A stretch of DNA of 64,000 nt from Candidatus Woesearchaeota archaeon (GCA_016185705.1 JACPMZ010000010.1:913-64912); one strand, 5' to 3'; numbered from the stretch's first letter, positions 34,397 through 61,173 are shown. The notes: generated by a model not told the origin, from the sequence alone. Numbers and translations are program-made.

Positions 34397-34410
34397 ATAA
34401 GCTACAATAG

Positions 34411-34553
34411 GCCTTATTGAAACGTTCACGCAGCCTCACTCTGTTGCTGGCTTCCCTTCCTGCTTTTTCCCTCCCTTAAATATTCAGGGGAGGGAAAAAG
34501 CAGGAAGAACGGCGGGATAAACGCAGCGGTAAAGTGAACTTTTCAATAGCACC
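34411..34553. repeat. Copy A of a ~142-bp intergenic element containing the GGGAGGG-core hairpin (34456..34507)
   Basis: About 96% identical to 61032..61173. Confidence 0.85.
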
Positions 34554-34609
34554 CTCCAACAGAAAGAAATAAATAAGAGTTGGAACCTTTGCCAGTGAAA
34601 GAGGTTAAA

Positions 34610-35083
34610 ATGCGGATACACTTTTACATTTTAGGGTTGTTGGCTGTTCTGCTTGCTGGCTGCAGTCCTGCACCTCCGGAAGTTGGCGGTGAAGGCGCTG
34701 AAGCAGCGCAGGTTCCTGCAGGTCTTGGTGATGATGCTGTAGAGGAGACTGTAGTTGTAGAAACGCCTGAAGAGGCTCCTGAAATCATTGCTCCTGATGC
34801 TCAGCCGCAGGCAAAACAGTTCACAATGACTGCAAGGCAGTGGGAGTTTGACCCTGAAGTGATAAGGGTTAACAAGGGCGACACTGTAAGGTTATTGGTA
34901 AAAAGCATTGACGTTGCTCACGGCTTTGCGCTGCCTGATTTTGGTGTTAACGAGCGCCTTAGCCCAGGGCAGACTGTTGAGGTTGAATTTGTTGCTGACA
35001 AAGCAGGAACCTTTACCTTCTTTTGCTCTGTTCAGTGCGGCGCCGGGCACAGCAGCATGAACGGGCAGCTCATAGTTGAATGA
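34610..35083 (+). CDS. CuA-type cupredoxin lipoprotein (COX II-like copper centre)
   Basis: Lipobox LLAGCS. H...FFCSVQCGAGHSSM CuA ligand motif. Confidence 0.7.
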   Translation: MRIHFYILGLLAVLLAGCSPAPPEVGGEGAEAAQVPAGLGDDAVEETVVVETPEEAPEIIAPDAQPQAKQFTMTARQWEFDPEVIRVNKGDTVRLLVKSIDVAHGFALPDFGVNERLSPGQTVEVEFVADKAGTFTFFCSVQCGAGHSSMNGQLIVE

Positions 35084-35526
35084 TGGCACCTATTGAACGC
35101 TACAAAAGTTACGCTCCGGCGCTTGTAAGAATAGCAGTCAGCCTTGTCTTCCTGTGGTTTGGGGTAAACCAGCTTGTTAATCCGGAGTCGTTTCTTGGCT
35201 ATGTTCCAAACTGGCTGCATCCTCACGCTGCCGAAATGCAGCACGCCCATCCGTTGCAGCTCCTGCACAACATTTCAGGGCTGGCTCATTGGCTGATAAT
35301 GGGCAATGGAATTTTTGAGACAACATTCGGGCTTCTTTTGCTTCTGGGCTTTTTCACACGGCTCAGCGCACTGCTGTTAAGCATCCATCTGGTTGCAATA
35401 GCGGCAGGCCTTGGCTACAATGACATAGCAGTGAGAGACTTGGGATTGGCTGCTGCGGCATTTTCGGTTTTTCTAAACGGCCCTGACACGCTTTGCATTG
35501 GCAAAAGGCTAAAGAAAGCATCTTAA
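35080..35526 (+). CDS. DoxX-family membrane protein
   Basis: 148 aa, four TM segments. ATGA overlap with the cupredoxin gene. Confidence 0.6.
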   Translation: MMAPIERYKSYAPALVRIAVSLVFLWFGVNQLVNPESFLGYVPNWLHPHAAEMQHAHPLQLLHNISGLAHWLIMGNGIFETTFGLLLLLGFFTRLSALLLSIHLVAIAAGLGYNDIAVRDLGLAAAAFSVFLNGPDTLCIGKRLKKAS

Positions 35527-35786
35527 ACTATGTCTTCTTCCGATACGACCAGAAAATCTCCGATTGCGAGCACTGAGCTGAACGGGATAAGTATGCTTCC
35601 TGCATCGTCTTTCTCAAGCTCCAGCTTCTGGATGTACTGCGTGGGGTTTGAAAGCACCAGGTGAATTAGTTCGCCGGAGCGCGTTTCAAAAACTATGTCT
35701 CCGACTTCGCCGAACCTTCTTCCGCTTTTGCTGACTACAGTTCGCCCTATCAGTTCCTTAGAAAACTTTTTTTCGTCTTCAGGCAT
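35523..35786 (-). CDS. PRC-barrel domain protein
   Basis: 87 aa (MPEDEKKF...GDIVFETRSGELIHLVL...). The longer antisense ORF track entry overlaps rfcS. Confidence 0.5.
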   Translation of the reverse strand: MPEDEKKFSKELIGRTVVSKSGRRFGEVGDIVFETRSGELIHLVLSNPTQYIQKLELEKDDAGSILIPFSSVLAIGDFLVVSEEDIV

Positions 35787-35926
35787 TCTGCTCACGTTAC
35801 CATTTAAAAATGCTAATAATTCCCCTGTTCCAGCCATTTCCGGAAGCAAGCTACTATTTATATTTTGTGGAAAAGGGTTGAAAACCTTTATATTGCTTCT
35901 GAAATTCCGGTGTTTTATGGAAAGCA

Positions 35927-36876
35927 TGATTTGGGCTGAGAAGTACCGCCCAAAGGATTTTGCCGGCATTGTCGGCCAGCAGGAGATTGTCAAGCGCGCC
36001 ATGGCGTTTGTTGAGAAGGGAAACATGCCGCATCTGCTGCTTGCAGGCCCGCCCGGCGTCGGCAAAACAACTCTGGCTCTGGTTATTGCGAAAAAGCTGT
36101 ATGGCGATAGCTGGAGAAGCAATGTTCTGGAGCTTAATGCTTCCTCTGAGCGCGGCATTGACGTTATCCGCAGCACTGTCAAGGATTTTGCAAGAACCAA
36201 GTCAATAGGAAATGCGCCTTTCAAGATTTGCATTCTGGATGAAGCGGATTCGCTTACCAGGGAAGCTCAGCAGGCAATGCGCAGGACTATGGAAAGCTAT
36301 TCTGCCACGTGCAGATTTATTCTTTTGGCAAATTACAGCTCAAAGCTTATTGAGCCGATTCAGAGCAGGTGCGCTGTTTTCCGCTTTAAGCCGCTGTCAA
36401 GCGAGCAGCTGATTAAGATTATTGACAGCATCAGCAGCAGCGAAAACATTACGATTGACAGCAAAGGAAAAAATGCGATTATTGAAGTCAGCGAGGGCGA
36501 CTGCAGGAAGCTTGAAAACGTTATGCAGAGCTGCGCTGTGCTCACCAATAATGTTACGGATGAGACTGTTTATTCAATCGCCAGCGCAGCCAGGCCTAAG
36601 GAAATCAAGGAAGTCATCGCGCTTGCATTGGCCAATAAGTTTGTTGAGGCAAGGTCCAAGCTTCTTGACACCATGCTCAGCCATGGCCTGGCCGGGCTTG
36701 ACATTATCCGCCAGATTCAGCGCGAAATCCTTGATTTGCAGCTTGACAACAGCAAAAAAATGGCTTTGATAAATGCCTGCGGCGAGATTGAATTCAGGAT
36801 GAGCGAGGGCTCGGATGAATTCATCCAGCTTGAAGCGCTGCTCAGCCAGTTTGCTCTGGCAGGGGAAAAAAGCTAA
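35927..36876 (+). CDS. rfcS: Replication factor C small subunit
   Basis: MIWAEKYRPKDF, GPPGVGKTT, DEAD and SRC motifs. Confidence 0.9.
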
Positions 36877-36999
36877 AGTGCAGCCACGCGCCGCTTCTCT
36901 TTTGCATCAGCCATTTCCACTTTTACCCTCCCTTAACTTTTAAGGGAGGGTAAAAGTGGAAAGCGGTGGAAAACAAGCGCGGCGAAATCAAAAAGAATT

Positions 37000-38124
37000 T
37001 CAGATTAAATGCTTTACCAGCACGTTCTGCGTTATTGAGCGCTGCGCGTAGTAGTCAAGCTCTACATTGAATGTTTTGACGCTGTCTATTTTGCTGTTTT
37101 CGTCAAGCGTCTGGATGCACGTGAAGGTCGCTTTGCCGTCTATCAATAATAGTTCGCCGCTTATGGGGCTGTTTCCTGTTAGTCCTACGCAGTTTAGTCC
37201 TGATGTTTGTGCTAATAATTCAATTCTTGCATTTCTGAGTCTGTCCCGTCTTGATTGGAGTGTATCATATGATGCCTCAAGGCCGACTAAAAATTTAGCA
37301 TCCTCTAATTCCTTTTCAGCTGCAGTGGCATCTATTCCAGCAAGCTTAATTCCTGTATCAACCAGTACATTAATTCTGTCTTTATTCCTGAAGTCTGTGC
37401 TGCATTTTTCTCCTTTGCTGTCTGCTGTTGGCTTGAAAACCTCATCAGGCCCTACTTTGGTTATTTCAAAGTTGAATATTATTTTGTCTGCCCCGCCTAC
37501 GCTTTGGGATACTTTGGTTATGTGCACCGGCGCGCCTGAGTTGCTGACTGCTCTTTCTCCTGACGGATTGCACACTTCGTTTACAGCGTCAGTGAAGTCT
37601 TCCTGCAGGCACATCTGGGATGCTGCGGCTGTTTTGTATCTGTAGCATGCCTCTGCTTTGAATGGGAACTGCTGGTTTCCTTTGAGCGTTTCCCTGTACA
37701 GGAACCTGTCAGAATCTGCCGGCCATCGATCCGCAACAGGAAATGTGAATGGCTGCAAATCCCCTCTTATCAGATTGCCGCTTGGGTCCCGCTGAACTCC
37801 AAGAAGCTGCTGGTTGTTGCTTTGCTTGAGCTGCTTATTTCTGTCTTCAACTGAAAAATCGTTGGGGAAGAATCCTGTCATTTCCATTTCCAGCTCGCCT
37901 GCAGGTATTGTGTGCTCGCCGACGTTTGACACTGTTACAACCGCCAGAAAAGGAAATCCTCGGCCGTCTCCGAAATCAGTCACTTCCAGCGGCGGAGTGT
38001 TTGGAAGGTAAGCTAATCTTAGCCCTTCTTTGCCTCCTGTGAATTCGCTGGTTGTGCTTTCTCCGCCGGGAAGGCATGCTGAAGCGGCAATAACCAAAAA
38101 CAGAATTCCGTAAATGGCTTTCAT
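37000..38124 (-). CDS. Secreted lipoprotein, paralog A of a three-member family
   Basis: Signal plus lipobox AASAC. Conserved EACYRYKTAAASQMCLQED...CNPSGERAVSNSGAPVHITKV. Confidence 0.6.
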   Translation of the reverse strand: MKAIYGILFLVIAASACLPGGESTTSEFTGGKEGLRLAYLPNTPPLEVTDFGDGRGFPFLAVVTVSNVGEHTIPAGELEMEMTGFFPNDFSVEDRNKQLKQSNNQQLLGVQRDPSGNLIRGDLQPFTFPVADRWPADSDRFLYRETLKGNQQFPFKAEACYRYKTAAASQMCLQEDFTDAVNEVCNPSGERAVSNSGAPVHITKVSQSVGGADKIIFNFEITKVGPDEVFKPTADSKGEKCSTDFRNKDRINVLVDTGIKLAGIDATAAEKELEDAKFLVGLEASYDTLQSRRDRLRNARIELLAQTSGLNCVGLTGNSPISGELLLIDGKATFTCIQTLDENSKIDSVKTFNVELDYYAQRSITQNVLVKHLI

Positions 38125-38159
38125 GCGTTGTATTCGAGAAATTTTGTATATAAATGTTT

Positions 38160-39155
38160 CTACTGGATGTCTTCAACAAGAACGTTTGTCTCTATTGTTT
38201 CCCTGACGTCGTATTCAAGTGCTGCAGTGAAGGTTTTTATGCTGTCAACGAATGACACTCCTTCAAGGTTTTGTATGCATGAGAAGGTTGCTGCGCCGTT
38301 GTTCAGTATCAGTTCGCCTGAGCCCTTATCGGCTCCTACATTTGTAAGCCCCAGGCAGTTTATGGAATCAGGGTTTCCGAGATTTGTTGTTACAGTCACT
38401 TTAACCCTGTTTTCGGAGAGCTGGTCGCTCTTTTGGCATTTTGGCCTTTGAGTCGGGTCTCTGGTATAGAATATGTCTGCTGTTCCCGCTTTTTTGACTT
38501 CAAAGTCAAGCACTACTGAGTTTGTTCCTGCCACGTCCTGCCTTACAGCTGTTATGTGAACCGGCGCTCCGGAGTTGCTGACCTGCCTGTTTCCTATCGG
38601 ATTGCAGATTTCAGTGTCGCTGCTTCTGAGGTCTTCCTTCAGGCAGATTTGCGAAACGGTTTTTGTTTCGTACTTGTAGCATGCTTCTGCTGTAAACGTG
38701 TAGGTTTGGTCTACGCTCAAATCCTGTCTATAGGCAAATTCGCCTGTTTTCGGAAAGGTTATCTGCTCAAGCGTGCCTCTTCTTACATCGCCCTGATTGT
38801 TTTTTGAAACAGCAGTAAGTGTTTGTGTGTTGGACTGGGTGAGTTCTTCGGTGGCAGCAACGCCGAAATCTTCAGGGAAGAATCCTTTCAGGCTTAATTT
38901 CAGGCCTCCTGGATTAATGGTGTATTCTCCAACGTTTTCAACGCTTACAATTGCGTTGAATTTAAACTGGTCTTCTTGGGTTGGGCCTGCATCAAAGGCT
39001 TTTGCCGGCGGGTTGTTGTCAAGAAACTTCAGTGTTACGCCGTCGTTTCCGCCAACAAAACCGAATGTGGAGGGTGTCTGCCCTTCGCCGGGCGAGCATG
39101 CAGAGATTATAGTTACAACAGCCAGCAGAATAACAGTTGCTATTACGCTTCTCAT
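38160..39155 (-). CDS. Secreted lipoprotein, paralog B
   Basis: Lipobox ISAC. EACYKYETKTVSQICLKED...CNPIGNRQVSNSGAPVHITAV. Confidence 0.6.
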   Translation of the reverse strand: MRSVIATVILLAVVTIISACSPGEGQTPSTFGFVGGNDGVTLKFLDNNPPAKAFDAGPTQEDQFKFNAIVSVENVGEYTINPGGLKLSLKGFFPEDFGVAATEELTQSNTQTLTAVSKNNQGDVRRGTLEQITFPKTGEFAYRQDLSVDQTYTFTAEACYKYETKTVSQICLKEDLRSSDTEICNPIGNRQVSNSGAPVHITAVRQDVAGTNSVVLDFEVKKAGTADIFYTRDPTQRPKCQKSDQLSENRVKVTVTTNLGNPDSINCLGLTNVGADKGSGELILNNGAATFSCIQNLEGVSFVDSIKTFTAALEYDVRETIETNVLVEDIQ

Positions 39156-39345
39156 AACCCGACACTTGTAAAATCTTTATATAAATTTTTCTGTTTTTTA
39201 GTTGAGGACAATAGTTTCGCATATTTATTTTCCTCAGCTAAAGTTTGGAAGGCATAGCATTTCCTATGCATTACTTGTGTCTTCCATTGTTTCGTCCACG
39301 GAAAAATGGGTAAAGTTTAAATAGTGAAAAGCTGAATTTGAAGGT

Positions 39346-40728
39346 ATGGTTAGGTATGCCTCTCTTGCTTTGACGGTTTTTGTGATTCTTGCTGTGCTGT
39401 ACAGCTTTGATTCCCTGAGCCAAACTTCGGTAACTGGTTATGCTTCCGGCGATGTTTGCCCTGAGGCGCGTAATGACGGCTGGAAGTGGAGGTGTGGTGG
39501 TGTCCGCTACCAGACTTATGATTCATGCGTCGCCGGCTGTGGTGCTCAGGGTTCAGCGCAGCAGCAATCTTCTGCTGGCTCTGCCGCTGGCAGCGATGCT
39601 CAGCAGGATACAACTGTCATTCCCGGCTCTCCAGCTGCCGGCTCTCAGCTCGCAGGCATCCGCCTTGAACCGGTTATTCAGGTGCTGGACGCCACTCCGA
39701 AAAGGGACAGGTATGTTGTTGGCGACAGTGTTATGCTGAATGTTTACGTTAAGAACTCTGGCACCAAAAGCACGCACGAATACCCTGAAGGGTATCGTTA
39801 CATTGTGAAGCTTTACAGCGGCAATTCTCTTTTGGAGGAGAAAACATTTTTCTTTGGAGGTTTGCCGCGTTATCTTGCTGATGAAAACGCACAGGTTACA
39901 ACTATTTCCAAAGGCAGCAATGTAAACGCTTTCGACACTGTGTGGGTTGCGGACAAGCAGACTCTGAAAGCTGAAGTTATTATAATAAAGCAGGATAATG
40001 ACAATGACGTTTCGGTAGCCACGTTTAAGGCTGAAAAAGGCCTGGAAGTGCTTTCCGAGGAAGAATATGGGGATTTCCTTGCCGCTAATGTTCCCGACAT
40101 ACAGCTGGTTGAGGTCAAGCTTCTGCCTGCTCCGACGAGCATTCCTTCAACTGTCACCAACTTTGCATACCGGATTAAGAATGAGGGCAGTGCTGATGCA
40201 GTGTTCTCAGATAAGTTTTTTGAGGCAAGCATCAAGCTGCTCAAGGGCGGCAGCACAATCTGCCAGGTGTCAGAAGACAGGCGCTTGTTTACGCTGAAGC
40301 CTGGTGAATCTAAGGGCTTCAGCACTTCCCTCGCAGCCGGCAGCTGCGTCATTGACAGCAGGTCTGCTTCGTACAGTTTCGTGGTTGAGCTGGACAGGAA
40401 CAATGTTTATGGAAAGAAAACCGTTGCTCAGTCAGCTGCCGATGCTGTTGTTGCATGCTCTCCGCTGGGGGGCAGGGGAACAGATGCTTACTGCGACCTT
40501 GATGGTTTCTACAAGAGCTACAAGGGCGGGGACGCTGCCTGCAGCCACAATTTTGAGTGTGAGGAAAACTTTTGCTACAACAGCAAATGCATTGAAAAAG
40601 GCATAATACAGGACAACAGGGCCTGCACTTTCAGCTTGCAGTGCGCATCTGATTTGTGCATAAAGGGCGTATGCGTTGGCGGCGAAAGGAAGGAAAGCAT
40701 CCACGCCTTGGTGCCTGTATTTGAATAG
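39346..40728 (+). CDS. Secreted Cys-rich protein with a C-terminal EGF-like Cys module
   Basis: Signal anchor. The C-terminus has six or more Cys in C-x-C patterns. Confidence 0.5.
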   Translation: MVRYASLALTVFVILAVLYSFDSLSQTSVTGYASGDVCPEARNDGWKWRCGGVRYQTYDSCVAGCGAQGSAQQQSSAGSAAGSDAQQDTTVIPGSPAAGSQLAGIRLEPVIQVLDATPKRDRYVVGDSVMLNVYVKNSGTKSTHEYPEGYRYIVKLYSGNSLLEEKTFFFGGLPRYLADENAQVTTISKGSNVNAFDTVWVADKQTLKAEVIIIKQDNDNDVSVATFKAEKGLEVLSEEEYGDFLAANVPDIQLVEVKLLPAPTSIPSTVTNFAYRIKNEGSADAVFSDKFFEASIKLLKGGSTICQVSEDRRLFTLKPGESKGFSTSLAAGSCVIDSRSASYSFVVELDRNNVYGKKTVAQSAADAVVACSPLGGRGTDAYCDLDGFYKSYKGGDAACSHNFECEENFCYNSKCIEKGIIQDNRACTFSLQCASDLCIKGVCVGGERKESIHALVPVFE

Positions 40729-40778
40729 CTTTGTAGAAAACGTGCGCTGTGTTCTCTTGCTAGGATTTTCAGCAGCAG

Positions 40779-42356
40779 CTAAGGGCTTACCACTTTCCCT
40801 TTCTTTGTGTCAGAGTCTGTGTTTCCTGCCTGGTCTCTGACAATTATTGTGTAAGAGTATTCGCCGCTTTGCGGTGCGTTTTGGCTGAATGTTCTTTCGC
40901 ATATTTTGTCAGCGCATGAAAAGACTTCTATGGTTTTTCCGTCTTTGCCAATGAGCTCTATTGATGACACCATTGACTCATCGCTTGCCTTCACTTTTAT
41001 TGCTATGCTTGCTCCCGGCGTTGCTTCTGCAGGCATTTCAAACACGTCAATCACCGGGCGGTCTTTGTCTATTACTACAAGCGCTGTTTTTGTCTGGGAT
41101 GGCCGGTTGAGGGTGTCATATGCTATTGCTTTGTACAGGTATCTGCCTTCTGCTTCAGGCGCTGCGAATTTGAACTGTTTGGTGCATGTTCGCTTGCCTT
41201 CGCACATCGCAGGGTTTTCCTCTTCTGTTGCCGCAAGGTTGCCGTCAGCATCAAGCATCTGCACGCTTAGCAGCCCGAAGTCATCGTTTGCAGTGATTGA
41301 CGCTGTTACTTGCTGGGATGCCGTGACTTCTGTGGGCGATATTCTGAATGCTGTAAGCTGCGGCGGCTCGTCCAGTACTTCTATTTCAACTTCTGCTGAT
41401 GCTGCTGTCTGGAAGCCGTAGCTTAATGTAAGCGTTAAGGTTGATACAATGTTGTTGTTTGCCCCTGCTGCAAAGTCCGGAGGCATTTCTGCTTCAGGTA
41501 TTTTTGCTGTGCTGCATTCTATGAATTCCTTTTTGGCTGCGCCTGTTGCTATGAGCGTTTGTCCTTCGCAGTCAAGCTTAAGTCCTGAAAGCTCGGCTTT
41601 TTCAACAGTAACTATTCCTATTTCTGAGCCTGCTTCGTCTGTGCATGCTTTCCTCAATGCGTCGTCGCTGCTGTCAAGCACTGTGCCTTTTCCCACTTTT
41701 TCAACATACACTTTGAACCTTGGCCTCACTGTTTCTCCGATTGTTAAGGATTCCTGCCCTATTTTGGTTACTGCTACCGGCGCGCCCTGGTTTTTGAGGC
41801 GGATATCCGAAGGCTCGCACACTAAGCTGCTTTCAGGTATTGAGAAATGCGCTGTCTTTACGCATACAGGCGTTGACACGAATGTTTTGTACGGGTAGCA
41901 TGCCAGGGCTGTGATTGTTCGGGAAGTTGTGCTTTTTGCAGCGCCAACATCTGCTTTCACTTCAACCGCTGCCCTTCCGCCTGCAAGGTAGTTTTCCCTG
42001 CCGATTATTTCAGCAGTGCCTGTGCTGCTCAGCGCATCTTTAAGCAGCCCGAAGTCTGGACTGACTTTTAGCGGCTCTGCTGCTATCACCTTGAAGTATC
42101 CGCAGCCGAAATCTGCCCGGCTGGTGTCGCCGCATGTTATGTCTGCTGCTCCTTTGTTTTCCAGCAGTACCGCTATCGGTATCGCAGCGCCGGGCACTGT
42201 TGTTTCAGGCGGTGCGTTGTCAAAGAAGCTCAGCTCAAGCCCCTGCTTCCCCTCAAAAGCTTCGGATACGTCAGGAATTTTTCCGGGCTCGCTTGGGCCG
42301 CATGCCGCAATTATTGAAATTAAACTCAGCATTAAAATAAAGTTGTAATTTTTCAT
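40779..42356 (-). CDS. Secreted lipoprotein, paralog C (extended C-terminus)
   Basis: Lipobox IAAC. ALACYPYKTFVSTPVCVK...CEPSDIRLKNQGAPVAVTKI. Four-nt overlap with the upstream membrane-protein gene. Confidence 0.6.
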   Translation of the reverse strand: MKNYNFILMLSLISIIAACGPSEPGKIPDVSEAFEGKQGLELSFFDNAPPETTVPGAAIPIAVLLENKGAADITCGDTSRADFGCGYFKVIAAEPLKVSPDFGLLKDALSSTGTAEIIGRENYLAGGRAAVEVKADVGAAKSTTSRTITALACYPYKTFVSTPVCVKTAHFSIPESSLVCEPSDIRLKNQGAPVAVTKIGQESLTIGETVRPRFKVYVEKVGKGTVLDSSDDALRKACTDEAGSEIGIVTVEKAELSGLKLDCEGQTLIATGAAKKEFIECSTAKIPEAEMPPDFAAGANNNIVSTLTLTLSYGFQTAASAEVEIEVLDEPPQLTAFRISPTEVTASQQVTASITANDDFGLLSVQMLDADGNLAATEEENPAMCEGKRTCTKQFKFAAPEAEGRYLYKAIAYDTLNRPSQTKTALVVIDKDRPVIDVFEMPAEATPGASIAIKVKASDESMVSSIELIGKDGKTIEVFSCADKICERTFSQNAPQSGEYSYTIIVRDQAGNTDSDTKKGKVVSP

Positions 42357-44110: not shown

Positions 44111-44278
44111 GGGTAATCCTCTTTTATCTGCTTGCCTTCAGTTTTCCTTTTATTGATACTTAAAGGTTTCTAAACAGGGGTGCTTTCAACTTTTGCGCGT
44201 TCCGCTGCCCGCTTCTTATTCCCTCCCTCGCAATTTAAGGGAGGGAATAAGAAGCGGGCGCAGGCTATCAAAAAATGC

Positions 44279-44917
44279 TTAACTTGACTTTGCCATAATT
44301 GCAGAAATGGCCTCCACAGATTCCTTCGCATTCGCCGTGTACATGCCTAATGCGAGAAGCAGTGATTTGAGGTCATGCGGCGAGCGCATTTCATATGGCT
44401 CAGAGGTTAAGCTTGCTATCGCTGTTTTTACTTTGTACTTTTTTGTCAGCTTTATGTTCTGCCGCACCCTGCCAAGCAGTAATGGCAGATTCTTTGCATT
44501 GAGCATTGCTGAGAAGCTGAACGCCACTACGACGTCATTATCCCTTGCAAACTGGCATGTTCCTTTGTCCAGCCCCGAATTTCTGGTTTTGGCAAAGTCT
44601 TTTCTCACTCCAAGCTCCAGATTATAAACTATGTTTGGCTTGTACTTGGCTATGATGTCCCGCGCTCCTTCAGCAGCTTCTGTTATTACGATTTCTTTGC
44701 TGTCGTGCGCTTTGTAGATTTTTGCGCCGCTCACCCTGAATACTGCCTGCAGCTTTATCTTGGTGGTTTTTTGCAGTTCCTGCACGCTGCTTTTAATTTT
44801 TTCAGCTGTGTTTTTGTCATAATCATACGCGAACAGAATGCCCTGAATGCCCAGCTTTTCAGCTACCGGGATGAAATCCTTTTCGTTGTTTTTCGGAAAT
44901 ATTATGTCGTAAAACAT
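44279..44917 (-). CDS. Possible RNase P protein component Rpp30 (TIM-barrel family)
   Basis: The C-terminal IASLTSEPYEMRSPHDLKSLLLALGM resembles the Rpp30 ISSAAERPLEIRGPYDVANLGLLFGL region. Confidence 0.4.
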   Translation of the reverse strand: MFYDIIFPKNNEKDFIPVAEKLGIQGILFAYDYDKNTAEKIKSSVQELQKTTKIKLQAVFRVSGAKIYKAHDSKEIVITEAAEGARDIIAKYKPNIVYNLELGVRKDFAKTRNSGLDKGTCQFARDNDVVVAFSFSAMLNAKNLPLLLGRVRQNIKLTKKYKVKTAIASLTSEPYEMRSPHDLKSLLLALGMYTANAKESVEAISAIMAKSS

Positions 44918-45825: not shown

Positions 45826-45826
45826 G

Positions 45827-51144: not shown

Positions 51145-51261
51145 TCAGGAAAAGGATTTTTTCATGATATAAAATGTTTGTCCAGCCCGTCTTTCCCCGC
51201 TGCCATAGCTCTCGGTTCTGCCTATGAACAGCTCGGCGTACTTGTTGGTTTCCTGAAGAGG

Positions 51262-52773: not shown

Positions 52774-52800
52774 GGCTTTGGGAATAGCTGATTCTATTTA

Positions 52801-54378: not shown

Positions 54379-54404
54379 TAATGTAGGAAACAATTGATTT
54401 AGTA

Positions 54405-55040
54405 ATGAAAACTATGCAGCGGGCAGCCAAAATCATTAAGCTGCTCAAAAAAGAGTACCCCGGCGCCAGAATTGCGCTGAACTATGGCAACACTGTTCAG
54501 CTCTTGGTTGCAGTAATGCTTTCTGCCCAATGCACTGACAAGATGGTTAACAAAGTTACCGCATCTTTGTTCAAAAAGTACAAAACTGCCAGGGATTTTG
54601 CAGCTGCAAATCCGAAGCAATTTGAGCAGGAGATTAGGTCAACCGGCTTCTACCGCAACAAGGCAAAAAACATAATTGCCGCAGCAAAAATAATTCAGAA
54701 AGATTTTGGCGGCAAAGTCCCTGACAGCATGGAAGATTTGCTCATTCTGCCGGGTGTTGCGAGGAAGACAGCTAATGTTGTGCTAAGCACGGCTTACGGC
54801 AAAAACCTTGGCGTTTGCTGCGATACCCATGTTATCCGGCTATCCCAGAGATGGCATTTGACAAAGAACAAGGACGCTGTAAAGATAGAGCAGGACTTGA
54901 TGAAGCTAATCCCAGAAAAAGACTGGGAAAAATTTTCTTTGATGACAATAAAGCACGGCCGCGAGGTTTGTTTTGCAAGAAAGCCGAATTGCAGCAGCTG
55001 TTTCTTGAATAAAGTTTGCCCGTCTGCTTTCAGGGTTTGA
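54405..55040 (+). CDS. nth: Endonuclease III (HhH-GPD glycosylase with [4Fe-4S])
   Basis: LPGVARKTANVV HhH motif, catalytic Lys-containing motif, and C-x6-C-x2-C-x5-C. Confidence 0.85.
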   Translation: MKTMQRAAKIIKLLKKEYPGARIALNYGNTVQLLVAVMLSAQCTDKMVNKVTASLFKKYKTARDFAAANPKQFEQEIRSTGFYRNKAKNIIAAAKIIQKDFGGKVPDSMEDLLILPGVARKTANVVLSTAYGKNLGVCCDTHVIRLSQRWHLTKNKDAVKIEQDLMKLIPEKDWEKFSLMTIKHGREVCFARKPNCSSCFLNKVCPSAFRV

Positions 55041-55303
55041 TGCGGCAGCCGGGACTTTCAGCACCGCTGGTGTTCAAAAGCTGCGAACGCCAGCAGGTAT
55101 GTTTGAACCCGGGTAACGAGCTTTTTCCTTTATGGGAAGCTCGGATCTTAGCCGCTGGATCACTGCCGCATGGTTTTCGGGTTATGCGTCAGAATAAAAT
55201 TGTTTCGCATTGAAGAAAAATTGATTGGGGTTCAGAACTGCTGCTGTGCTTGCTAAAGTATTGTTCCGAAACATTTATAGCGCATCCTGAGCTGCTGTTT
55301 TGC

Positions 55304-56050
55304 ATGGCTGTTGTTATTGAAGCAAAAAACCTTACCAAAAAGTTTCCTTCTGTTGTTGCTGTTGACAGCGTCAGTCTCAGGATTAACGAGGGCGAGATTT
55401 TCGGCCTGCTTGGCCCTAACGGGGCTGGCAAGACTACGCTCATTTCCATGCTTACTACTTTGCTCAGGCCTACTTCAGGCAGCGCAGTGGTTAATGGCTA
55501 TGACGTCAGGAAAAATGCGCATGATGTCCGTGCTTCCATAGGGCTTGTTTTTCAGGAGACTGTGCTTGACCTTGACCTTACTGCATATGACAACCTTGAC
55601 TTCCATGCGCGCCTTTACAGCATTCCGAAAAGCGTCAGGAATAGCCGCATTACTGAAGCAGCCAAACTTGTCGGGCTTGACAGGGATTTGTTCAGGAAAG
55701 CTGAATCCTTCTCAGGCGGCATGAAGCGGCGTCTGGAGGTTGCGCGCGGTGTGCTGCACACTCCGAAGGTTTTGTTCCTCGATGAGCCCACGCTTGGGCT
55801 TGACCCGCAGACTCGGCGGAAAGTCTGGGAATATATCAGCCAGCTGCGAAAGAAAGTTACTGTTCTCATCACTACGCATTACATGGAGGAAGCTGATTAT
55901 TTGTGCGACAGGGTTGCTATCATGGACCGCGGCAGGATTGTTGCATTGGGCGCTCCGGATAAGCTGAAGAGCAGCTTGCGTTCGCGAAAGCCCACTTTGG
56001 AGGATGTTTTCATTAAGCGCACAGGAGGCATGATTAGGGATGAGGTTTAG
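55304..56050 (+). CDS. ABC transporter ATP-binding protein (ABC-2 type)
   Basis: GPNGAGKTT, LSGGMKRRL and LDEPT motifs. Confidence 0.85.
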   Translation: MAVVIEAKNLTKKFPSVVAVDSVSLRINEGEIFGLLGPNGAGKTTLISMLTTLLRPTSGSAVVNGYDVRKNAHDVRASIGLVFQETVLDLDLTAYDNLDFHARLYSIPKSVRNSRITEAAKLVGLDRDLFRKAESFSGGMKRRLEVARGVLHTPKVLFLDEPTLGLDPQTRRKVWEYISQLRKKVTVLITTHYMEEADYLCDRVAIMDRGRIVALGAPDKLKSSLRSRKPTLEDVFIKRTGGMIRDEV

Positions 56051-56795
56051 CGAAATTCATACTCTTTGGAGGCGTGTTATCAAGCTGAGCTTGGCTGACA
56101 AGGCAAGCATTCTGCTTTCCCTGGTTTGGCCTCTTTTCCTGATTTTCATTCTTGGCATGGGTTTTGACTCTTTTGTGGAATTCAAGAGCGTTGAAACCAG
56201 TTATACAGCTTTTCTCGGCCCGGGCATAATTATCATGATGGTGTTTGCGGGCAGCGCTGCTGTTGGCAACTTAATCATTAAGGACAAGGAGGGTTTTATC
56301 AGGGAGCTTCTGGTTGCGCCTATTTCAAGGGCTTCAATTTTTGTTGGAACTGTTCTGGGAACTATGACAATCAGCTTCATTGTAATGATTATGGTTGCGA
56401 TGGTTTTCCTTGAGTACATTGGCGCTTTAAGCGTTCAGAATCTGCTTTGGACCCTGCTGTTCATGTTCCTTGCTGCCTTTGTTTCTTACGGCGGCAGTGT
56501 TGTCATCAGCTTTTTGTTCAGGAAGCCCGGCGCTTACCAGCAGTTTGTCGCGCTGTTCAGCTTTGTGATAGTTTTCCTTTCAGGCGCTTTCTTTCCGTTG
56601 AAGGATTTGCCTGTCTGGATGAAGTCATTGGCTTATGCTAATCCGATTACTTACGCTGTTGACGGTCTCCGCGGCCAGCTGATTGGCATAGCCCAGTTTT
56701 CTCTGGCAGCAGACATTTTTGCGCTGATAGGATTTGCAGTTCTTTTTACTGTTTTGGGCGCTTTGTTTTTCAGGAAATCTGTTGGCGCTGCTTAG
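56040..56795 (+). CDS. ABC-2 family transporter permease
   Basis: Six TM segments. Overlaps the ATPase gene. Confidence 0.75.
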   Translation: MRFSEIHTLWRRVIKLSLADKASILLSLVWPLFLIFILGMGFDSFVEFKSVETSYTAFLGPGIIIMMVFAGSAAVGNLIIKDKEGFIRELLVAPISRASIFVGTVLGTMTISFIVMIMVAMVFLEYIGALSVQNLLWTLLFMFLAAFVSYGGSVVISFLFRKPGAYQQFVALFSFVIVFLSGAFFPLKDLPVWMKSLAYANPITYAVDGLRGQLIGIAQFSLAADIFALIGFAVLFTVLGALFFRKSVGAA

Positions 56796-56962
56796 CACAC
56801 CTCCTTGGAATGCATCTTTCAGTTCTGGCGCTTTATTTCCGCCTCCCTAACTTTCGAAGGGAGGTGGAAATAAAGCGCGGTGTGAGATGCTGTAGATTAG
56901 AGGATGAAATTGGGGAACAGGCAGCCGCACGTACAGGCATCGGACGCCATAATTGCAGTGTT

Positions 56963-57241
56963 TTACCGCGCCAGAAAGCTTAATACGGATTTCTGCAGCA
57001 GCCATACTGCCAGAACGTAAACAAATAGCGTGTGCAGCCCGAACACAGCCATTGCCAGTATGTACAGCGCTGTTATGAAGTCTCCGAAGCTTGCAAAATC
57101 CTTGGGAAATGCTAATGCTTTGCCTGCCAGGTAAACGGCAAATCCAATCCCCAGTCTTGCTCCAATCAGGTCAAAGTGCAGCAGCAGCATTCCTGCAGCT
57201 GCCAGCAGGTCCAGCGCTCCAAGCACCCACAGAACGACCAT
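56963..57241 (-). CDS. Small membrane protein, hypothetical
   Basis: 92 aa, three TM segments. Confidence 0.4.
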   Translation of the reverse strand: MVVLWVLGALDLLAAAGMLLLHFDLIGARLGIGFAVYLAGKALAFPKDFASFGDFITALYILAMAVFGLHTLFVYVLAVWLLQKSVLSFLAR

Positions 57242-57242
57242 C

Positions 57243-57542
57243 TTACATTATCCCGAGTTCCATCTTTGCTTCTTCTGTCATTTTGTCAGGGCTCCACATC
57301 GGCTCCCAGACTATGTCTACTGTTACGCCTGTTACTCCGCTGATTTTTTTGACTTTTTCCTCAACCGCATCCAGAATCAATGGCCCTACAGGGCATGCGG
57401 GGCTTGTCAGCGTCATTTTTATTACAACCATGCTGCCGTCAATAGCAACATCATACACGAGCCCGAGGTCTACTATGTTTATGTGCATCTCAGGGTCTGT
57501 CACTTCCTTCAGTTTTTCCATGACGGTTTCTTTGGTTGGCAT
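57243..57542 (-). CDS. DUF59/SufT (MIP18-family) Fe-S assembly protein
   Basis: PEMHINIVDLGLVY...TSPACP motif. Confidence 0.7.
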   Translation of the reverse strand: MPTKETVMEKLKEVTDPEMHINIVDLGLVYDVAIDGSMVVIKMTLTSPACPVGPLILDAVEEKVKKISGVTGVTVDIVWEPMWSPDKMTEEAKMELGIM

Positions 57543-57615
57543 GGAATTAGGAATGTTTGGTGATTTAAAAAGGTTGGTGTAATGTTTTTATAATAGAATA
57601 TCTTGCCGTTTCCCT

Positions 57616-58920
57616 ATGGCAGGAATAAAAAGTCGGGAGGAAGTGGCAACGCTTGTTAAAAAAGTTCAGCCCTCAGGCATAAGGGAAATGCTGGAGCCCA
57701 AAATGAATTCAGCAGGGAATAAAACTTGGCGGGATTTTCAGAATAACAGCAACAAAGTTTTGGAAGAATTAATAGGGCTTGGCGTAATTGTTAAGCCGGA
57801 TTTGAAGTTGCCTGCTGGCTGGCATCAGTATAGTTATGAGAAGGGCGGCCTTTTCCCTGCTCCTCCTGAATATGCAGGGCTTGAGCAGCCATACAGGGAT
57901 TCGTGGAAGAGATTTATGGATGCCGTTTTGGAATTAAAGCCGGAGCAGGTGCTTTACATCAGCGAGGAAAATAATCTTTGGCCTTTTATTCCAAGAAGAA
58001 GACTTTCAAAGCGGCATAACCTGGTTTCTGCTCCGCGGTTTGACAGTCTGGATAGGATTGACAAATTATCTGTGCATGCCTTGGCTGTGCGGCTGGGCGA
58101 GACCCGTATTGGCGATATTTTTGTTGGAATGGATTTTCAGGGGGTGCAGCATACGGGCAGGGAGTACAGGGTTTTCCATATTTCAGATATTTTCAGGGGC
58201 CAGCTGATGGATGAGGTTTTACCGAGAAGGATTGGCGACGATTGGCTTGGAGAAGTTGCCTTTTATGCTGATTCCCCGGATATTTGGAGCATGGGGCTGG
58301 AGGCATTGGTTAAAAATATCCCTTCACTGGGCTCTCCCGGCGATGCAGTTGATGTAGAGCTGCACCACGTGCCTCTCGTGCATGTTTCCCAGTTGAAGAA
58401 GGGCATTGTAACGGTTGATCCATCAGCGCGCGCGATTAGCTACAATTTCAGGGCTACAGACCCCTGCGAGAAAAGAAAGTGGATGATTAAATACGGCAGA
58501 GGGCAGGTTTTCGGTAAGTCTGACAGGAAGGGTGACGAGTTGTGGCTGGATCATCACGTTGTATTCGCCTATAGCAGGATGAGAAGGTTTGCGGATTGGC
58601 TCAGGGAGGGTGAAGCTGATCCTGGCAGGCGCTTTGTTATTCTGCCGATGTTTCCATCTCCGGCAAAGGAAGAAACCAAAGAAGGATTCAGAAAGATGTA
58701 CGGCACAAAAACCGAAGAAGGTGTTATTGGAGGTGTTGTTGTTGATGCCCGCCTGCCTGTTGGCCAGTTTGGCCATAGGCTGGACAGGCATTCGCTGAGC
58801 GAGCGTCTTGTTGACTTGGACATTGCATTGCATAACCTGGTTGCTGTTACTGCTGACTCCATGAGGCCGGAGGGCCACAGAATTGTGTATTCAAAAAGTG
58901 CTAAGGCGCTTCCTGTGTAA
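57616..58920 (+). CDS. Large hypothetical protein (434 aa), no recognised domain
   Basis: Long ORF with coding-like composition and no motif I recognise. Confidence 0.45.
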   Translation: MAGIKSREEVATLVKKVQPSGIREMLEPKMNSAGNKTWRDFQNNSNKVLEELIGLGVIVKPDLKLPAGWHQYSYEKGGLFPAPPEYAGLEQPYRDSWKRFMDAVLELKPEQVLYISEENNLWPFIPRRRLSKRHNLVSAPRFDSLDRIDKLSVHALAVRLGETRIGDIFVGMDFQGVQHTGREYRVFHISDIFRGQLMDEVLPRRIGDDWLGEVAFYADSPDIWSMGLEALVKNIPSLGSPGDAVDVELHHVPLVHVSQLKKGIVTVDPSARAISYNFRATDPCEKRKWMIKYGRGQVFGKSDRKGDELWLDHHVVFAYSRMRRFADWLREGEADPGRRFVILPMFPSPAKEETKEGFRKMYGTKTEEGVIGGVVVDARLPVGQFGHRLDRHSLSERLVDLDIALHNLVAVTADSMRPEGHRIVYSKSAKALPV

Positions 58921-59164
58921 TGGCAGAAGCTGTCTGCGGCATCTCTTCGCCGTAGCTTGGCACTGCTGACTTGGAAATGATTATTACGTCTCCGACTGAT
59001 TTTATGAGCTGGTGGGGCACTATTACGCCTTTTGCGCTGCCTAAGAGCTTGCTTAATGCGCTTGTTTTGGTTGCCTTCACTCTCCATGCGGTTATCTTTG
59101 TTTTTGTCATTACTGCTTCTTCCACGTCTCCAAAGTAGTCTCCGGAGTCTGTGAATACCTTCAT
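58901..59164 (-). CDS. PRC-barrel-like small protein
   Basis: MKVFTDSGDYFGDVEEAVM... The longer 112-aa ORF in the track is a possible N-extension. Confidence 0.35.
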   Translation of the reverse strand: MKVFTDSGDYFGDVEEAVMTKTKITAWRVKATKTSALSKLLGSAKGVIVPHQLIKSVGDVIIISKSAVPSYGEEMPQTASAITQEAP

Positions 59165-59331
59165 GGAATATATGTCTGTAATCCTTTTGAGTTTTAGCAT
59201 GAACGCCCTGCATGGGTTCGTGTATTTAAAGTTTTTCATGGATTGCTGAATCTTTGGCGCTGTTTATCGTCAGCAGTCAGTGGCAAAACAGCAGAAGAAG
59301 TTTTTTAAACAGTTAAATAAGGCTATTCTCC

Positions 59332-60030
59332 ATGGAGAACCTGAGGATTATAGGCACATCCCATATAGCGGCGGAGAGTGTTGATGCAGTTAATAAGTAC
59401 ATTAAGGATGCGCAGCCGGATATTGTTGCCATTGAGCTTGACCGCAGGCGCGCCAATGCTTTGCTGCACGGCCAGAAGAGCAGGCTTTCTCCTAAGCTGA
59501 TAAAAGTTATTGGCGTTAAGGGCTTTTTGTTCATGGCAATAGCTGCTTTTCTTCAGCGGAAGCTCGGCAATATTGTGGGAGTTGAGCCTGGCTCTGAGAT
59601 GAAAGCAGCCCTTACATCTGCCATTAAATCCGGGGCAAGGGTTGCGCTGATTGACAGGCACATTGAGGTTACGATGAAGCGCCTCTCCCAGACTTTGACG
59701 TGGAAGGAGCGCTTCAGGTTTGTTATGGATATTTTCTCTGGCTTTTCGGGCGAAATGAAAGAGCTTGGAAGCGTTGATTTGCGCAAAGTGCCTGCAAAAA
59801 AAATTATTGACAAAGTGCTGCAGCGCCTGAAAAATCATTACCCCAATCTTTACAAAGTTTTGGTGGAAGAAAGAAACGAGCACATGGCTGCTGCTCTTGC
59901 AGATATAATGCATAAGAATCCTGACAGCAAAATTCTTGCAGTTGTCGGCGCAGGCCATGAGGAGGAGCTTGCTAATCTTGTAAAGAGGAATTACGGGGAA
60001 AGCTCCGGTTATAGTTTTAGTGCTGGGTAA
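59332..60030 (+). CDS. TraB/GumN-family protein
   Basis: IIGTSHIAAESV...VAIELD...AVVGAGH pattern. Confidence 0.7.
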   Translation: MENLRIIGTSHIAAESVDAVNKYIKDAQPDIVAIELDRRRANALLHGQKSRLSPKLIKVIGVKGFLFMAIAAFLQRKLGNIVGVEPGSEMKAALTSAIKSGARVALIDRHIEVTMKRLSQTLTWKERFRFVMDIFSGFSGEMKELGSVDLRKVPAKKIIDKVLQRLKNHYPNLYKVLVEERNEHMAAALADIMHKNPDSKILAVVGAGHEEELANLVKRNYGESSGYSFSAG

Positions 60031-60099
60031 CCTTCCGTTTCTTTGCCCGCTTGGGTGCATAGCGAAGCATTTAAAAACGCTGTTCCCGATTAAGCAGCC

Positions 60100-60855
60100 A
60101 TGGTTTATGGTTTTTATGAGTGGATGGCTCGCGTCAGGAAGTACGCTCCCTTCAGCAGGAAGGAGCTTATGTGGATTGGGGTTAGCATTGTTGTTCTGGC
60201 GTTTATTGTTGGCTTTGACGACGGCAGCGAGGAGTTTAATCTTGCCCGGTACGTTTCCAACATGGTTCTGAGCGTGGTGGTGGTTGCTGTTGCTGTTTTG
60301 GTTCATGAGTCTGCCCACCGCATTGCAGGCCCCAACATGGGCTACCGCATTGAGTTCAGGCCTTTCTTCTTTGGGCTGATTGGAGGCCTTATTCTGTCGT
60401 TCATGTCTTACGGCAAGATTCTGTTCCTTGCTTACGGCAGCTTTTTCCTTGACATCAGGGAAAAGCACCGGCTCGGCTACTTCAGGCATTATCTTGGCTA
60501 TTTTGACAACGGCAAGGTTGCTGTTGCAGGCCCGCTGGCAAATCTGGCTGCTGCAATGGCTTTCAAGAGCATGGTTTTCCTGCCTGAGCTGCTGGTTGCG
60601 AAGCTTGTTTTCATTAACGTGCTTTTCGCTGTTACAAACATGCTGCCCATTCCTCCACTTGACGGCTCGCATGTGATGTATGCTTCCCGCCATCTTTATC
60701 CTTTCACAATGGCTGCTATCATTGGGGCTGCTGTTCTGCTGCTTATTCCCGAGGTTAAGTGGTGGATGTCTATTCTGGGAGCATTGGTAATTGGCGTAGC
60801 TTACTCATTTATTTACTTCCACTACATAGAAAAGGCGTTTGGCAGCTGGGATTAA
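60100..60855 (+). CDS. Site-2 protease family (M50) membrane metalloprotease
   Basis: HESAHR (HExxH) and NMLPIPPLDG motifs in a polytopic protein. Confidence 0.7.
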   Translation: MVYGFYEWMARVRKYAPFSRKELMWIGVSIVVLAFIVGFDDGSEEFNLARYVSNMVLSVVVVAVAVLVHESAHRIAGPNMGYRIEFRPFFFGLIGGLILSFMSYGKILFLAYGSFFLDIREKHRLGYFRHYLGYFDNGKVAVAGPLANLAAAMAFKSMVFLPELLVAKLVFINVLFAVTNMLPIPPLDGSHVMYASRHLYPFTMAAIIGAAVLLLIPEVKWWMSILGALVIGVAYSFIYFHYIEKAFGSWD

Positions 60856-61031
60856 GCTTCTGATGCTGCTTGCTCGCGGGGTGGTGTCAGCTTTTGCGTG
60901 TTTCGCTGATAGCTCTTTATTCCTTCTGTCTTCGCAGTTGCAATCAAACAGCAAACTATATGCGGGAGCAGATATGCGGCGTGCGCAGGCAGCAGGGTAA
61001 ACACGCTTAACTTGACATTGCCTGCTACGGA

Positions 61032-61173
61032 CCTTATTGAAAAGTTCGCGCAGCCTCGCTCTGTTGCTGGCTTCCCTTCTTGCTTTTTCCCTCCCTTAAA
61101 TATTCAGGGGAGGGAAAAAGCAGGAAGAACAGCGGGATAAACGCAGCGGTAAAGTGAACTTTTCAATAGCACC
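61032..61173. repeat. Copy B of the ~142-bp intergenic element (hairpin 61076..61127)
   Basis: About 96% identical to 34411..34553. The hairpin has a G-U-compatible substitution on the + strand. Confidence 0.85.

Follow-up and report, generated by a model that had tools for sequence, protein, structure and literature searches.

The 143-bp sequence that occurs twice in the 64-kb window (the whole stretch of woesearchaeal DNA that was analysed) probably belongs to a lineage-specific, MITE-like family of foldback repeats in a DPANN archaeon, the two copies being young duplicates. The repeats are multi-copy, palindrome-bounded and non-coding, and they are confined to the source genome and a few close relatives, each genome carrying them at different sites. 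Most likely they represent a known sort of genomic parasite, miniature transposable elements, and neither a new RNA gene nor a regulatory leader. A sequence-only reading had offered a small ncRNA, a shared leader or regulatory module and a MITE-like mobile element as possible identities; the last of these is favoured by terminal inverted repeats, sharp edges, the presence of further copies and subfamilies, and absence of the element at orthologous sites in relatives. Table 1 gives an overview of the features.

Table 1. Members of the foldback repeat family in the 64-kb window, their termini and core hairpins, and adjacent promoters
Feature	Position	Strand	Evidence
c34k, subfamily-A foldback element, first reported copy	34410..34557	+	CM R1 153.8 bits; dG -70.3, z -7.6; 95.8% to c61k
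c61k, subfamily-A foldback element, second reported copy	61030..61177	+	CM R1 157 bits; dG -74.1, z -8.0
c11k, subfamily A, diverged third copy, convergent junction after 6-phosphogluconolactonase gene	11336..11472	+	nhmmer E=2e-9; dG -71.7, z -7.7
r60.9k, degenerate subfamily-B element, directly left of c61k	60877..61022	+	aligns lengthwise with 44167-44294, both ends included
e44k, subfamily B, between RNase P p30 coding end and next promoter	44167..44294		p30 last codons and stop come from e44k; L022, L024 comparison
e26k, related full-length element, own inverted ends GGTAATTTCAAGTT ... AACTTGACATTATCC	25997..26140		dG -61.2, z -9.1; CM match
e36k, related element, fills convergent gap after RFC small-subunit gene	36889..36988		nhmmer E=5e-8; CM 34.4 bits; fold z -8.1
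e56k, related core hairpin, after ABC-2 permease gene	56828..56878		hairpin and CM searches
e5k, weak or degenerate member, divergent intergenic region	5438..5482		repeat and nhmmer searches; fold z only -2.0
Left terminal inverted repeat of c34k (GGCCTTATTGAAACGTTCAC)	34410..34429	+	16/20 vs reverse complement of 34534-34553
Right terminal inverted repeat of c34k (GTGAACTTTTCAATAGCACC)	34534..34553	+	end-motif comparison
Left terminal inverted repeat of c61k (GACCTTATTGAAAAGTTCGC)	61030..61049	+	end-motif comparison
Right terminal inverted repeat of c61k	61154..61173	+	end-motif comparison
Core hairpin of c34k, CTTCCTGCTTTTTCCCTCCCTT / loop / AGGGGAGGGAAAAAGCAGGAAG, T5 tract on each strand	34456..34507		inverted-repeat/hairpin scan
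Core hairpin of c61k	61076..61127		inverted-repeat/hairpin scan
BRE/TATA promoter of cupredoxin gene (ACAGAAAGAAATAAATAAGAGTTGG), native, outside element	34559..34582	+	GAAAGAAtTAAATAAGAtTGG equally far from ATG in L024
BRE/TATA of small membrane-protein gene (ACAGAAAGAATTTTATAC), putative promoter	61179..61196	+	sequence; likely start ATG 61217

An ungapped comparison of 34411-34553 with 61031-61173 yielded 6 mismatches in 143 nt (95.8% identity), or 5 in 142 nt (96.5%) when started at 34412, which confirms the earlier description of an element of about 142 bp present twice at about 96% identity with 5-6 mismatches. On both sides the identity ends where the long palindrome ends, and in the flanks it falls abruptly to about 42%, left and right. 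Only one stretch of 10 nt, ACAGAAAGAA, escapes this drop: it follows both copies at an identical offset of 6 nt on the right-hand side (34559-34568 and 61179-61188). Because the chance expectation of the 20-nt end motif is 0.01 per window, the match is not by chance. The copies are direct repeats of about 143 bp spaced 26,620 bp apart, an arrangement which would also be expected of attL and attR of a 26.6-kb integrated element, but the likelihood of this is minimal. Instead of a non-core block with an integrase, the interval contains the core genes RFC, RNase P p30, GatB, HerA/Mre11 and EndoIII; no integrase is present, a further copy (c11k) lies outside the interval, and in the relative assembly L024 the gene order DsbA - x - x - cupredoxin - DoxX - PRC - RFC runs unbroken across the position of the left repeat, which is missing there.

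The notion that only these two copies exist is false already inside the window. A model built from c34k and c61k alone retrieved a third copy from end to end (nhmmer, model positions 1-144), which is diverged (BLAST identity 65% over 144 nt) and whose inner stem differs in sequence while its pairing is kept. In total, nine members were counted in the 64-kb window, to which all copy numbers given here refer: three of subfamily A, two of subfamily B, of which one (r60.9k) adjoins c61k, and four further relatives. Members are roughly 100-150 bp long (133-148 bp in the comparison with MITE criteria) and are non-coding; most frames carry stops at positions differing between copies, and one open frame of 42 aa has no homologue among 5.8 billion proteins. 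In a census (PMC11602168) prokaryotic MITEs are described as non-coding elements of 50-800 bp with terminal inverted repeats of 10-15 bp or more and target-site duplications of 2-10 bp, mostly genus-specific and, in archaea, intergenic in about 89% of cases. Size, lack of coding capacity and multiple dispersed copies in one genome agree with this description. An abundance of MITEs is not new for Woesearchaea: one such genome ranks among the archaea with the highest densities (105 per Mb; PMC11602168), and the present nine elements per 64 kb (about 140 per Mb) are of the same order.

Full copies share the conserved termini GG..TATTGAAAAGTTC / GAACTTTTCAATA..CC, and across the subfamilies the ends follow GG-N3-5-(T)TTGAAAAGTT or GG-N-TTCAAGTT, inverted at the opposite end. 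The two ends are complementary at 16/20 positions in c34k and at 15/20 in c61k, with a perfect core ATTGAAAAGTTC of 12-13 bp; the same is found in c11k and in a copy of the relative L029 (GGCATTGTTGAAAGTC ... GACTTTTTCAACAGAGCC). These ends agree with the inverted repeats of 10-15 bp or more that define MITEs. The elements have probably spread in trans through a transposase encoded elsewhere that would recognise the conserved termini; recombination or gene conversion between family members would be a weaker alternative. No clean, unambiguous target-site duplication was seen at the element flanks examined. The candidate at c34k (CTACAATA / CTCCAACA) is imperfect (6/8) and in a register not common with c61k, the candidate at c61k (CTGCTAC / CTGCTTAC) includes an indel, and the three copies leave the boundary not fixed to the base. 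For copies with only 4% divergence the missing clean duplication is odd. Neither a transposase gene (Pfam scan of 50 ORFs in the window) nor an IS whose ends match those of the family was detected. The lack of a clear target-site duplication, of a transposase or of a matching IS counts against the MITE-like reading, as does the number of only three subfamily-A copies in the window.

Comparison with relatives revealed that orthologous sites differ in whether they hold the element. At the 34k site of L024 the gap comprises 81 bp compared to 286 bp in the window and lacks the element. In L022 the p30 stop codon directly abuts the conserved promoter TAGAAAGCTTTAAG with 0 bp between them, e44k being absent, and at this site L024 carries unrelated DNA. 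At the 61k site L108 and L109 possess a small gene in place of r60.9k and c61k. Since the compared relatives are distant (RFC 77-79% and Hef 72-74% identity), these site differences show lineage-specific gain or loss and not a recent event. No family member was detected in L022, L023 and L027, in L108 and L109, or in Woesearchaeota loci of RFC identity ≤69% that together span about 450 kb. In three other assemblies (L021, L024, L029) members occur where genes converge behind the RFC region, which could indicate retention for a function.

Each full copy forms an end-to-end imperfect hairpin of about 135 nt, and for the three subfamily-A copies (fold z -7.6 to -8.0) no shuffled sequence was as stable. 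The embedded hairpins reported earlier for c34k and c61k are indeed present, with stems of 20-22 bp, but the palindrome is not restricted to the centre: the entire 143 bp constitute one long imperfect palindrome. The core has the conserved form TTTT-CCCTCCC-loop-GGGAGGG-AAAA with an AT-rich loop; in every member its T-run and C-rich block are conserved best, and each of the long hairpins begins with its pyrimidine arm. Pairing persists despite sequence change: 87% of cells are paired, compared to 72% in shuffled and 50-58% in slid alignments, and double changes occur in 32 of 48 pairs while the arms remain complementary. These double changes are no less compatible with selection on the hairpin than with a transposon relic that decays passively, and may fit the former better.

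Such a very stable fold with covariation support, together with the co-orientation of all three subfamily-A copies with their upstream gene, would also suit an independent small structured ncRNA gene in paralogous copies, which we nevertheless consider very unlikely. Both strands fold about equally well, and neither is consistently favoured by G-U content. The sequence ahead of the elements shows no evident BRE/TATA, and a perfect long duplex without a conserved unpaired motif would be atypical of functional sRNAs. An Rfam search, proposed earlier as a check, returned 0 matches at gathering score over the whole window; the best sub-threshold matches reached 36 bits, with thresholds of 84-100, and were generic miRNA-precursor hairpins on both strands. 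The small-ncRNA option is thus left without positive support.

The elements fill the narrow gap that separates a stop codon from the BRE/TATA of the following gene. The two reported copies do lie upstream of the cupredoxin and the membrane-protein gene, as described, but, judged from the sequence, the latter gene most likely starts at ATG 61217 (open frame of 112 aa), behind its own BRE/TATA at 61181-61196, and not at 61154. Therefore c61k is located upstream of the promoter, outside both gene and leader. That the element is a promoter or leader module common to genes for membrane and secreted proteins, with for example its right end AAAGTGAACTTTTCAATAG serving as BRE/TATA in the outward direction, is most unlikely. 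It could draw on the short distances of c34k and c61k to such genes (56 and 43 nt), on the ACAGAAAGAA block that follows both, and on the known outward promoters of Correia elements (PMC10969869). However, the cupredoxin promoter GAAAGAA-TAAATAAGA-TTGG is found equally far from the ATG in the element-free L024, and c11k at its convergent junction faces no downstream gene start. Furthermore, AGAAA(G/C) directly precedes TATA-like boxes at other promoters, here and in relatives, so the shared block is largely BRE. With a BRE/TATA between element and start codon, the elements would not be part of the leaders of the downstream genes.

Members lie downstream of a gene end in eight of nine cases, and in the five gaps that were read (11k, 34k, 36k, 56k, 61k) it is the element that contains the first T4-5 run met beyond the stop codon of the preceding gene. 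Read-through RNA from the upstream gene would form a hairpin of >50 bp with a T4-T7 tract, whichever strand is transcribed, and as a secondary role the elements may serve as a bidirectional read-through barrier or 3'-end stabiliser. It is conceivable, if doubtful, that they are not mobile DNA at all but functional cis-acting hairpins (a bidirectional transcription barrier or a 3'-UTR stabiliser), the pair having been generated by gene conversion between members already in place. Besides the position at gene ends and T-runs, the complementarity held by double changes, the very stable stem that each strand offers behind a T4-T7 tract, with its conserved T-run and C-rich block, and the members at the RFC-region junction in three other assemblies argue for this, and conversion tracts would account for the ragged similarity beyond the ends of the pair (GCTAC at the left end, ACAGAAAGAA at the right). 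On the other hand, placement by gap type is no different from random by length (intergenic bases 58% tandem, 16% convergent and 27% divergent; elements 6, 2 and 1), most window genes have neither such a hairpin nor a regular T5 after the stop codon, the corresponding junctions of close relatives carry no element, and a terminator needs no conserved inverted termini far from its core.

In an intrinsic terminator the U-run follows the stem. Here the order is reversed, a T-run preceding and an A-run following the stem on both strands, so that a G+C-rich stem with a U-tract behind it, as in the bacterial type, is not formed, and a terminator scan did not call these hairpins in the region from 30 to 46 kb of the window. 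An unlikely variant combines mobility and function: a clade-specific, exapted bidirectional terminator with oligo-T entry and very stable stem, copied by transposition into stop-to-promoter gaps. In an ultra-compact DPANN genome such a module would block read-through into the next BRE/TATA. If the elements do block read-through, they would be a rare instance of hairpin-associated termination in archaea.

As MITE-like elements, the repeats can be compared with several known systems. ERIC/IRU (enterobacteria) and Correia elements (CREE/NEMIS; Neisseria) have lengths of about 100-200 bp. Like the family described here, they are non-coding and intergenic with terminal inverted repeats, form a whole-element hairpin when co-transcribed, often lie at gene 3' ends or just before genes, occur in subfamilies and nested side by side, and can change both where adjacent ORFs end and what becomes of transcripts (PMC10969869). 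In contrast, the present family has no sequence relationship to them, resides in an archaeal host and displays no TA or other clean target-site duplication; any effect would use BRE/TATA and oligo-T, with no IHF or RNase III context. SPRITE is likewise a dispersed repeat with a terminator-like hairpin (PMC10969869), but it mimics the bacterial terminator with a stem plus U-tail. The Sulfolobus (SM1-SM4) and haloarchaeal MITEs resemble the family in being small, non-autonomous, intergenic and genus- or species-restricted. For Sulfolobus MITEs parent IS elements have been identified and target-site duplications are present, whereas neither was found here within the window. REP sequences are dispersed extragenic palindromes at gene ends with proposed roles in transcript stability and termination; a REPIN is an inverted doublet that forms one long hairpin, is mobilised by a RAYT (IS200/IS605-like) and keeps its arms complementary via compensatory change. 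The dispersed, extragenic location at gene ends and the arms that stay complementary through change are shared. Unlike REPINs, the elements consist of one conserved central core plus termini, not of two inverted REP units of about 25 nt, and have no GTAG-type head motif; no PF01797-type protein (RAYT/Y1) was detected among 50 ORFs scanned in the 64 kb. The elements thus do not match the REP/REPIN-RAYT system as far as the window shows, although a RAYT may be encoded elsewhere.

To our knowledge, the mobile-element biology of DPANN archaea is almost undescribed, and the family adds a structurally characterised repeat to this group. In Woesearchaeota its members are possible markers with which strains could be typed and recent genome rearrangements traced. 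Annotators should be aware of two effects. ORFs starting inside an element, such as that at GTG 61154, are likely artefacts; and in RNase P p30 the final codons have been replaced by e44k, so that the C-terminus is element-derived. Finally, Logan assemblies made independently from this organism have their breaks precisely within the repeat, and the existence of a repeat family explains the breaks at these points.

The two reported copies at 34 kb (c34k) and 61 kb (c61k) align without gaps over 143 nt with 6 mismatches (95.8% identity; 34411-34553 vs. 61031-61173), and a 142-nt core contains 5. This confirms the identity of about 96% claimed by the sequence-only reading; the hairpin said to be embedded in each copy is genuine as well. 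Immediately outside both ends identity drops to ~42%, the background level, with the exception of a 10-nt block (ACAGAAAGAA) located 6 nt to the right of both copies in the same register. Most of this exception is explained by AGAAA(G/C), which recurs right before the TATA-like box at other promoters in the window and in related genomes. The hairpin is only the middle of a larger symmetry spanning the whole element: read as inverted complement, the right end (GTGAACTTTTCAATAGCACC) matches the left end (GGCCTTATTGAAACGTTCAC) at 16 of 20 positions, and each copy forms an imperfect end-to-end hairpin of ~135 nt (folding energy −70.3 kcal/mol for c34k and −74.1 kcal/mol for c61k; z-scores −7.6 and −8.0; equalled by none of the shuffled sequences). 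The palindrome ends at the same points where the identity between the copies stops. Target-site duplication candidates around the copies are imperfect and do not lie in a single register. The termini may resemble ISL3-type ends (GGCTCTT...), a likeness that carries no weight in the argument.

A third copy at 11 kb (c11k) was recovered at full length with a profile made from just the two reported copies (E=2e-9, 65% identity). This copy shares with the pair the termini (GGCCATATTGTAAAAGTTCA ... GCAACTTTTCAATACGACC) and the core (TTTTCCCTTCCC-TAAATATTTA-GGGAGG); the inner stem differs in sequence, but its self-complementarity is still perfect. Profile and covariance-model searches together with a hairpin census revealed the wider family in the window, whose termini include the pattern GG-N-TTGAAAAGTT / AACTTTTCAA-N-CC and which has a density of 9 per 64 kb. 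Seven of the eight long hairpins from the census, as well as c11k, are pyrimidine-first, with the order T4-7, CCCTCCC-like, AT-rich loop, GGGAGGG-like, A4-7. The lone other case, found where genes converge past the CopA gene, is a perfect 14-bp hairpin (AAAGGCTACTTTGA-TGCG-TCAAAGTAGCCTTT) without sequence kinship to the foldback family. In an alignment fitted to the structure and taking in both strands of the same palindromes, 87% of the cells were paired, compared to 72% after shuffling and 50-58% with slid partners, and double changes occurred in 32 of 48 pairs.

Positions of the foldback elements and of further features in the window
Feature	Position	Context or sequence
c34k (subfamily A)	34410-34557	between stop of 219-aa membrane-protein gene (34323) and cupredoxin lipoprotein gene (ATG 34610)
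Hairpin in c34k	34456-34507	
c61k (subfamily A)	61030-61177	between stop of M50 peptidase gene (60855) and small membrane-protein gene
Hairpin in c61k	61076-61127	
c11k (diverged subfamily A)	11336-11472	past 6-phosphogluconolactonase gene (stop 11268), facing convergent VapC gene
e26k (relative)	25997-26140	own inverted ends GGTAATTTCAAGTT / AACTTGACATTATCC
e36k (relative)	36889-36988	
e44k (relative, subfamily B)	44167-44294	
e56k (relative)	56828-56878	
e5k (weak member)	5438-5482	
r60.9k (decayed homologue of the 44k element)	60877-61022	8 nt from left end of c61k
BRE/TATA-like promoter, cupredoxin gene	34559-34577	ACAGAAAGAA-ATAAATAAG, between c34k and start codon
BRE/TATA-like promoter, small membrane-protein gene	61179-61196	ACAGAAAGAA-TTTTATAC, between c61k and start codon
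Junction after RFC	36876-37000	
Non-pyrimidine-first hairpin	21189-21220	
31-nt direct repeat	32787-32817, 34361-34391	CTCAAAGCCAAAACACTGCCGCCCGCAGATT
VapBC-type pair	11831-12401 (-)	PIN-domain protein 11831-12214, 65-aa partner 12204-12401
Direct repeats flanking VapBC-type pair	11514-11641, 12433-12560	
Metal/redox stress neighbourhood	21194-35526	CopA-type P-type ATPase (YHS, HMA domains), DsbD-like, BlaI/CopY-like repressor with M56/M48 peptidase, thioredoxin-fold proteins, DsbA, cupredoxin lipoprotein, DoxX
Divergent intergenic region	17671-18790	
Post-Hef hairpins	63818-63862, 63930-63975	

The relative L024 (ENA ERZ4903137; RFC 77% identical) has the window's order of DsbA, two small genes, cupredoxin, DoxX, PRC and RFC, and its 81-bp gap before the cupredoxin gene lacks the element, while CCGAAAGAATTAAATAAGATTGG is kept and its spacing to the ATG is unchanged. 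At the position of the 44k element, the conserved next promoter (TAGAAAGCTTTAAG) in the relative L022 begins with the stop codon TAG of the RNase P p30 gene, leaving a gap of zero; in the window ~112 nt of element directly precede that TAGAAAC, and p30 takes its last codons and its stop from the element. L024 carries unrelated DNA at this site. In the relatives L108/L109 (Hef 72-74% identical) a gene of 83-91 aa takes the place of the 61k element. Relatives carry family members elsewhere, at the convergent junction that follows the RFC region (L021, L024/L025/L026, L029), and the L029 copy has full inverted termini (GGCATTGTTGAAAGTC / GACTTTTTCAACAGAGCC). No member was found in L022/L023/L027, nor across ~450 kb of loci from Woesearchaeota whose RFC identity is ≤69%. 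Element-bearing junctions are sites of gene gain and loss: comparison with L021, L022 and L024 shows that every relative read has a large gene (634-741 aa) after RFC which the window lacks, and in the window a foldback element comes directly after the RFC stop.

Several searches for copies elsewhere gave nothing. The pattern GCAGYGGN7AACTTTTCAATA, which fits all three subfamily A copies of the window, had 13 matches over genome contigs that do not include the source genome, approximately the chance expectation, and the two archaeal matches among them proved unrelated on reading. A core-loop pattern had no match in metagenome and viral sequences, blastn of the element found none in phage and plasmid collections, and a 42-aa spurious ORF of the element retrieved no other copies from the protein database.

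Most likely, the elements constitute a family of MITE-like foldback repeats (MITE, miniature inverted-repeat transposable element), and the reported pair is a young duplicate of subfamily A. Among the small ncRNA, the shared leader or regulatory module and the MITE-like mobile element offered by the sequence-only reading, the last is best supported, since the elements are discrete units that keep inverted termini across subfamilies while their interiors diverge, have no coding capacity, comprise several subfamilies, are nested, have replaced the 3′ end of a gene, occupy sites that differ between genomes and have a narrow taxonomic range. These traits agree with how prokaryotic MITEs are defined and described in the literature. 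No transposase or integrase was detected by Pfam among 50 ORFs of the window. For MITEs of Woesearchaeota or DPANN archaea the literature yielded only one large census (NAR 2024), in which a Woesearchaea genome is among those with the top archaeal MITE densities, 105 per Mb (PMC11602168). Alternatively, the 96% identical pair may reasonably have arisen by gene conversion between older family members, which would also account for the ragged similarity just beyond its ends.

A small ncRNA gene is not supported: Rfam gave no hit at gathering score and below it only generic miRNA-like hairpins on both strands, and a strand test (G-U content, folding energy) revealed no consistent bias. The shared leader fails because a BRE/TATA-like promoter lies between each element of the pair and the downstream start codon. 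Since L024 keeps the promoter block without the element, the cupredoxin BRE/TATA is a native promoter with c34k upstream of it; a promoter-carrying module was rejected on the same ground. The GTG at 61154, proposed as start of the small membrane-protein gene, falls within c61k, and the real start is likely ATG 61217, ~21 nt past the TATA box. The pair was also considered as att sites of a 26.6-kb island, which was dismissed as synteny crosses the left repeat and the interval contains core genes; archaeal core genes in the window include RFC small subunit, Hef, RNase P p30, GatB and HerA/Mre11. A CRISPR array was rejected as well, since tandem spacing is absent. Logan assemblies made independently for this organism from five runs break within the final 30-40 nt over which the repeat copies are identical, for which a two-copy repeat alone suffices; both copies have their right junction reproduced in these assemblies, which speaks against an assembly artefact.

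Oligo-T is the known archaeal termination signal. In each element, RNA polymerase coming from either direction would meet a T4-T7 tract and then a very stable stem; in c34k the T5 tracts are at 34463-34467 (+) and 34496-34500 (-). In all five element-bearing gaps read (11k, 34k, 36k, 56k, 61k) the first T-run past the upstream stop lies inside an element. Both the complementarity kept up between the arms and the repeated presence at the RFC-region junction of several genomes would fit a secondary role as read-through barrier or 3′-end stabiliser. For bacteria, a comparable role has been suggested for ERIC, REP and SPRITE elements (PMC10969869). There is a modest chance that exaptation has turned the family into a bidirectional terminator or insulator of this compact DPANN genome. 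The evidence counts against elements primarily functional in origin: placement by intergenic-gap type is as expected from length alone, the majority of genes lack such a hairpin, close relatives manage without elements at the same junctions, and A's rather than U's come after the stem. Neither gap type nor the distance from stop codons to the first T5 gave a significant signal.

Further observations concern the surroundings of the elements. One copy of a perfect 31-nt direct repeat (46 nt at 89%) precedes the BRE/TATA of the DsbA-like gene by ~25 nt; the other is just left of c34k, upstream of the cupredoxin promoter. Both copies lie 24 nt from the TATA box once the element and 8 nt are deleted in silico, and the repeat, which was not found in relatives, may be an operator common to two genes of the copper/redox cluster. 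At the position of this metal/redox neighbourhood, relatives carry PadR/TRASH and DUF411 genes. The VapBC-type toxin-antitoxin pair is flanked by 128-nt direct repeats (81% identical; 71-nt core 94%) and resembles an inserted cassette whose flanks were duplicated, adjoining c11k; in L022 a PIN/RHH pair is inserted at a different junction, past the RFC neighbour. The divergent intergenic region of 1.1 kb is unusually long for so compact a genome, and it contains no convincing ORF and no Rfam match. Just past the Hef gene, two hairpins of another kind (TATAGCGACTGAC...GTCAGTCGCTATA and CGGACAA...TTGTCCG), cut by the window end, have no tRNA or Rfam match, and Logan contigs of the same organism stop there, at ~63847.
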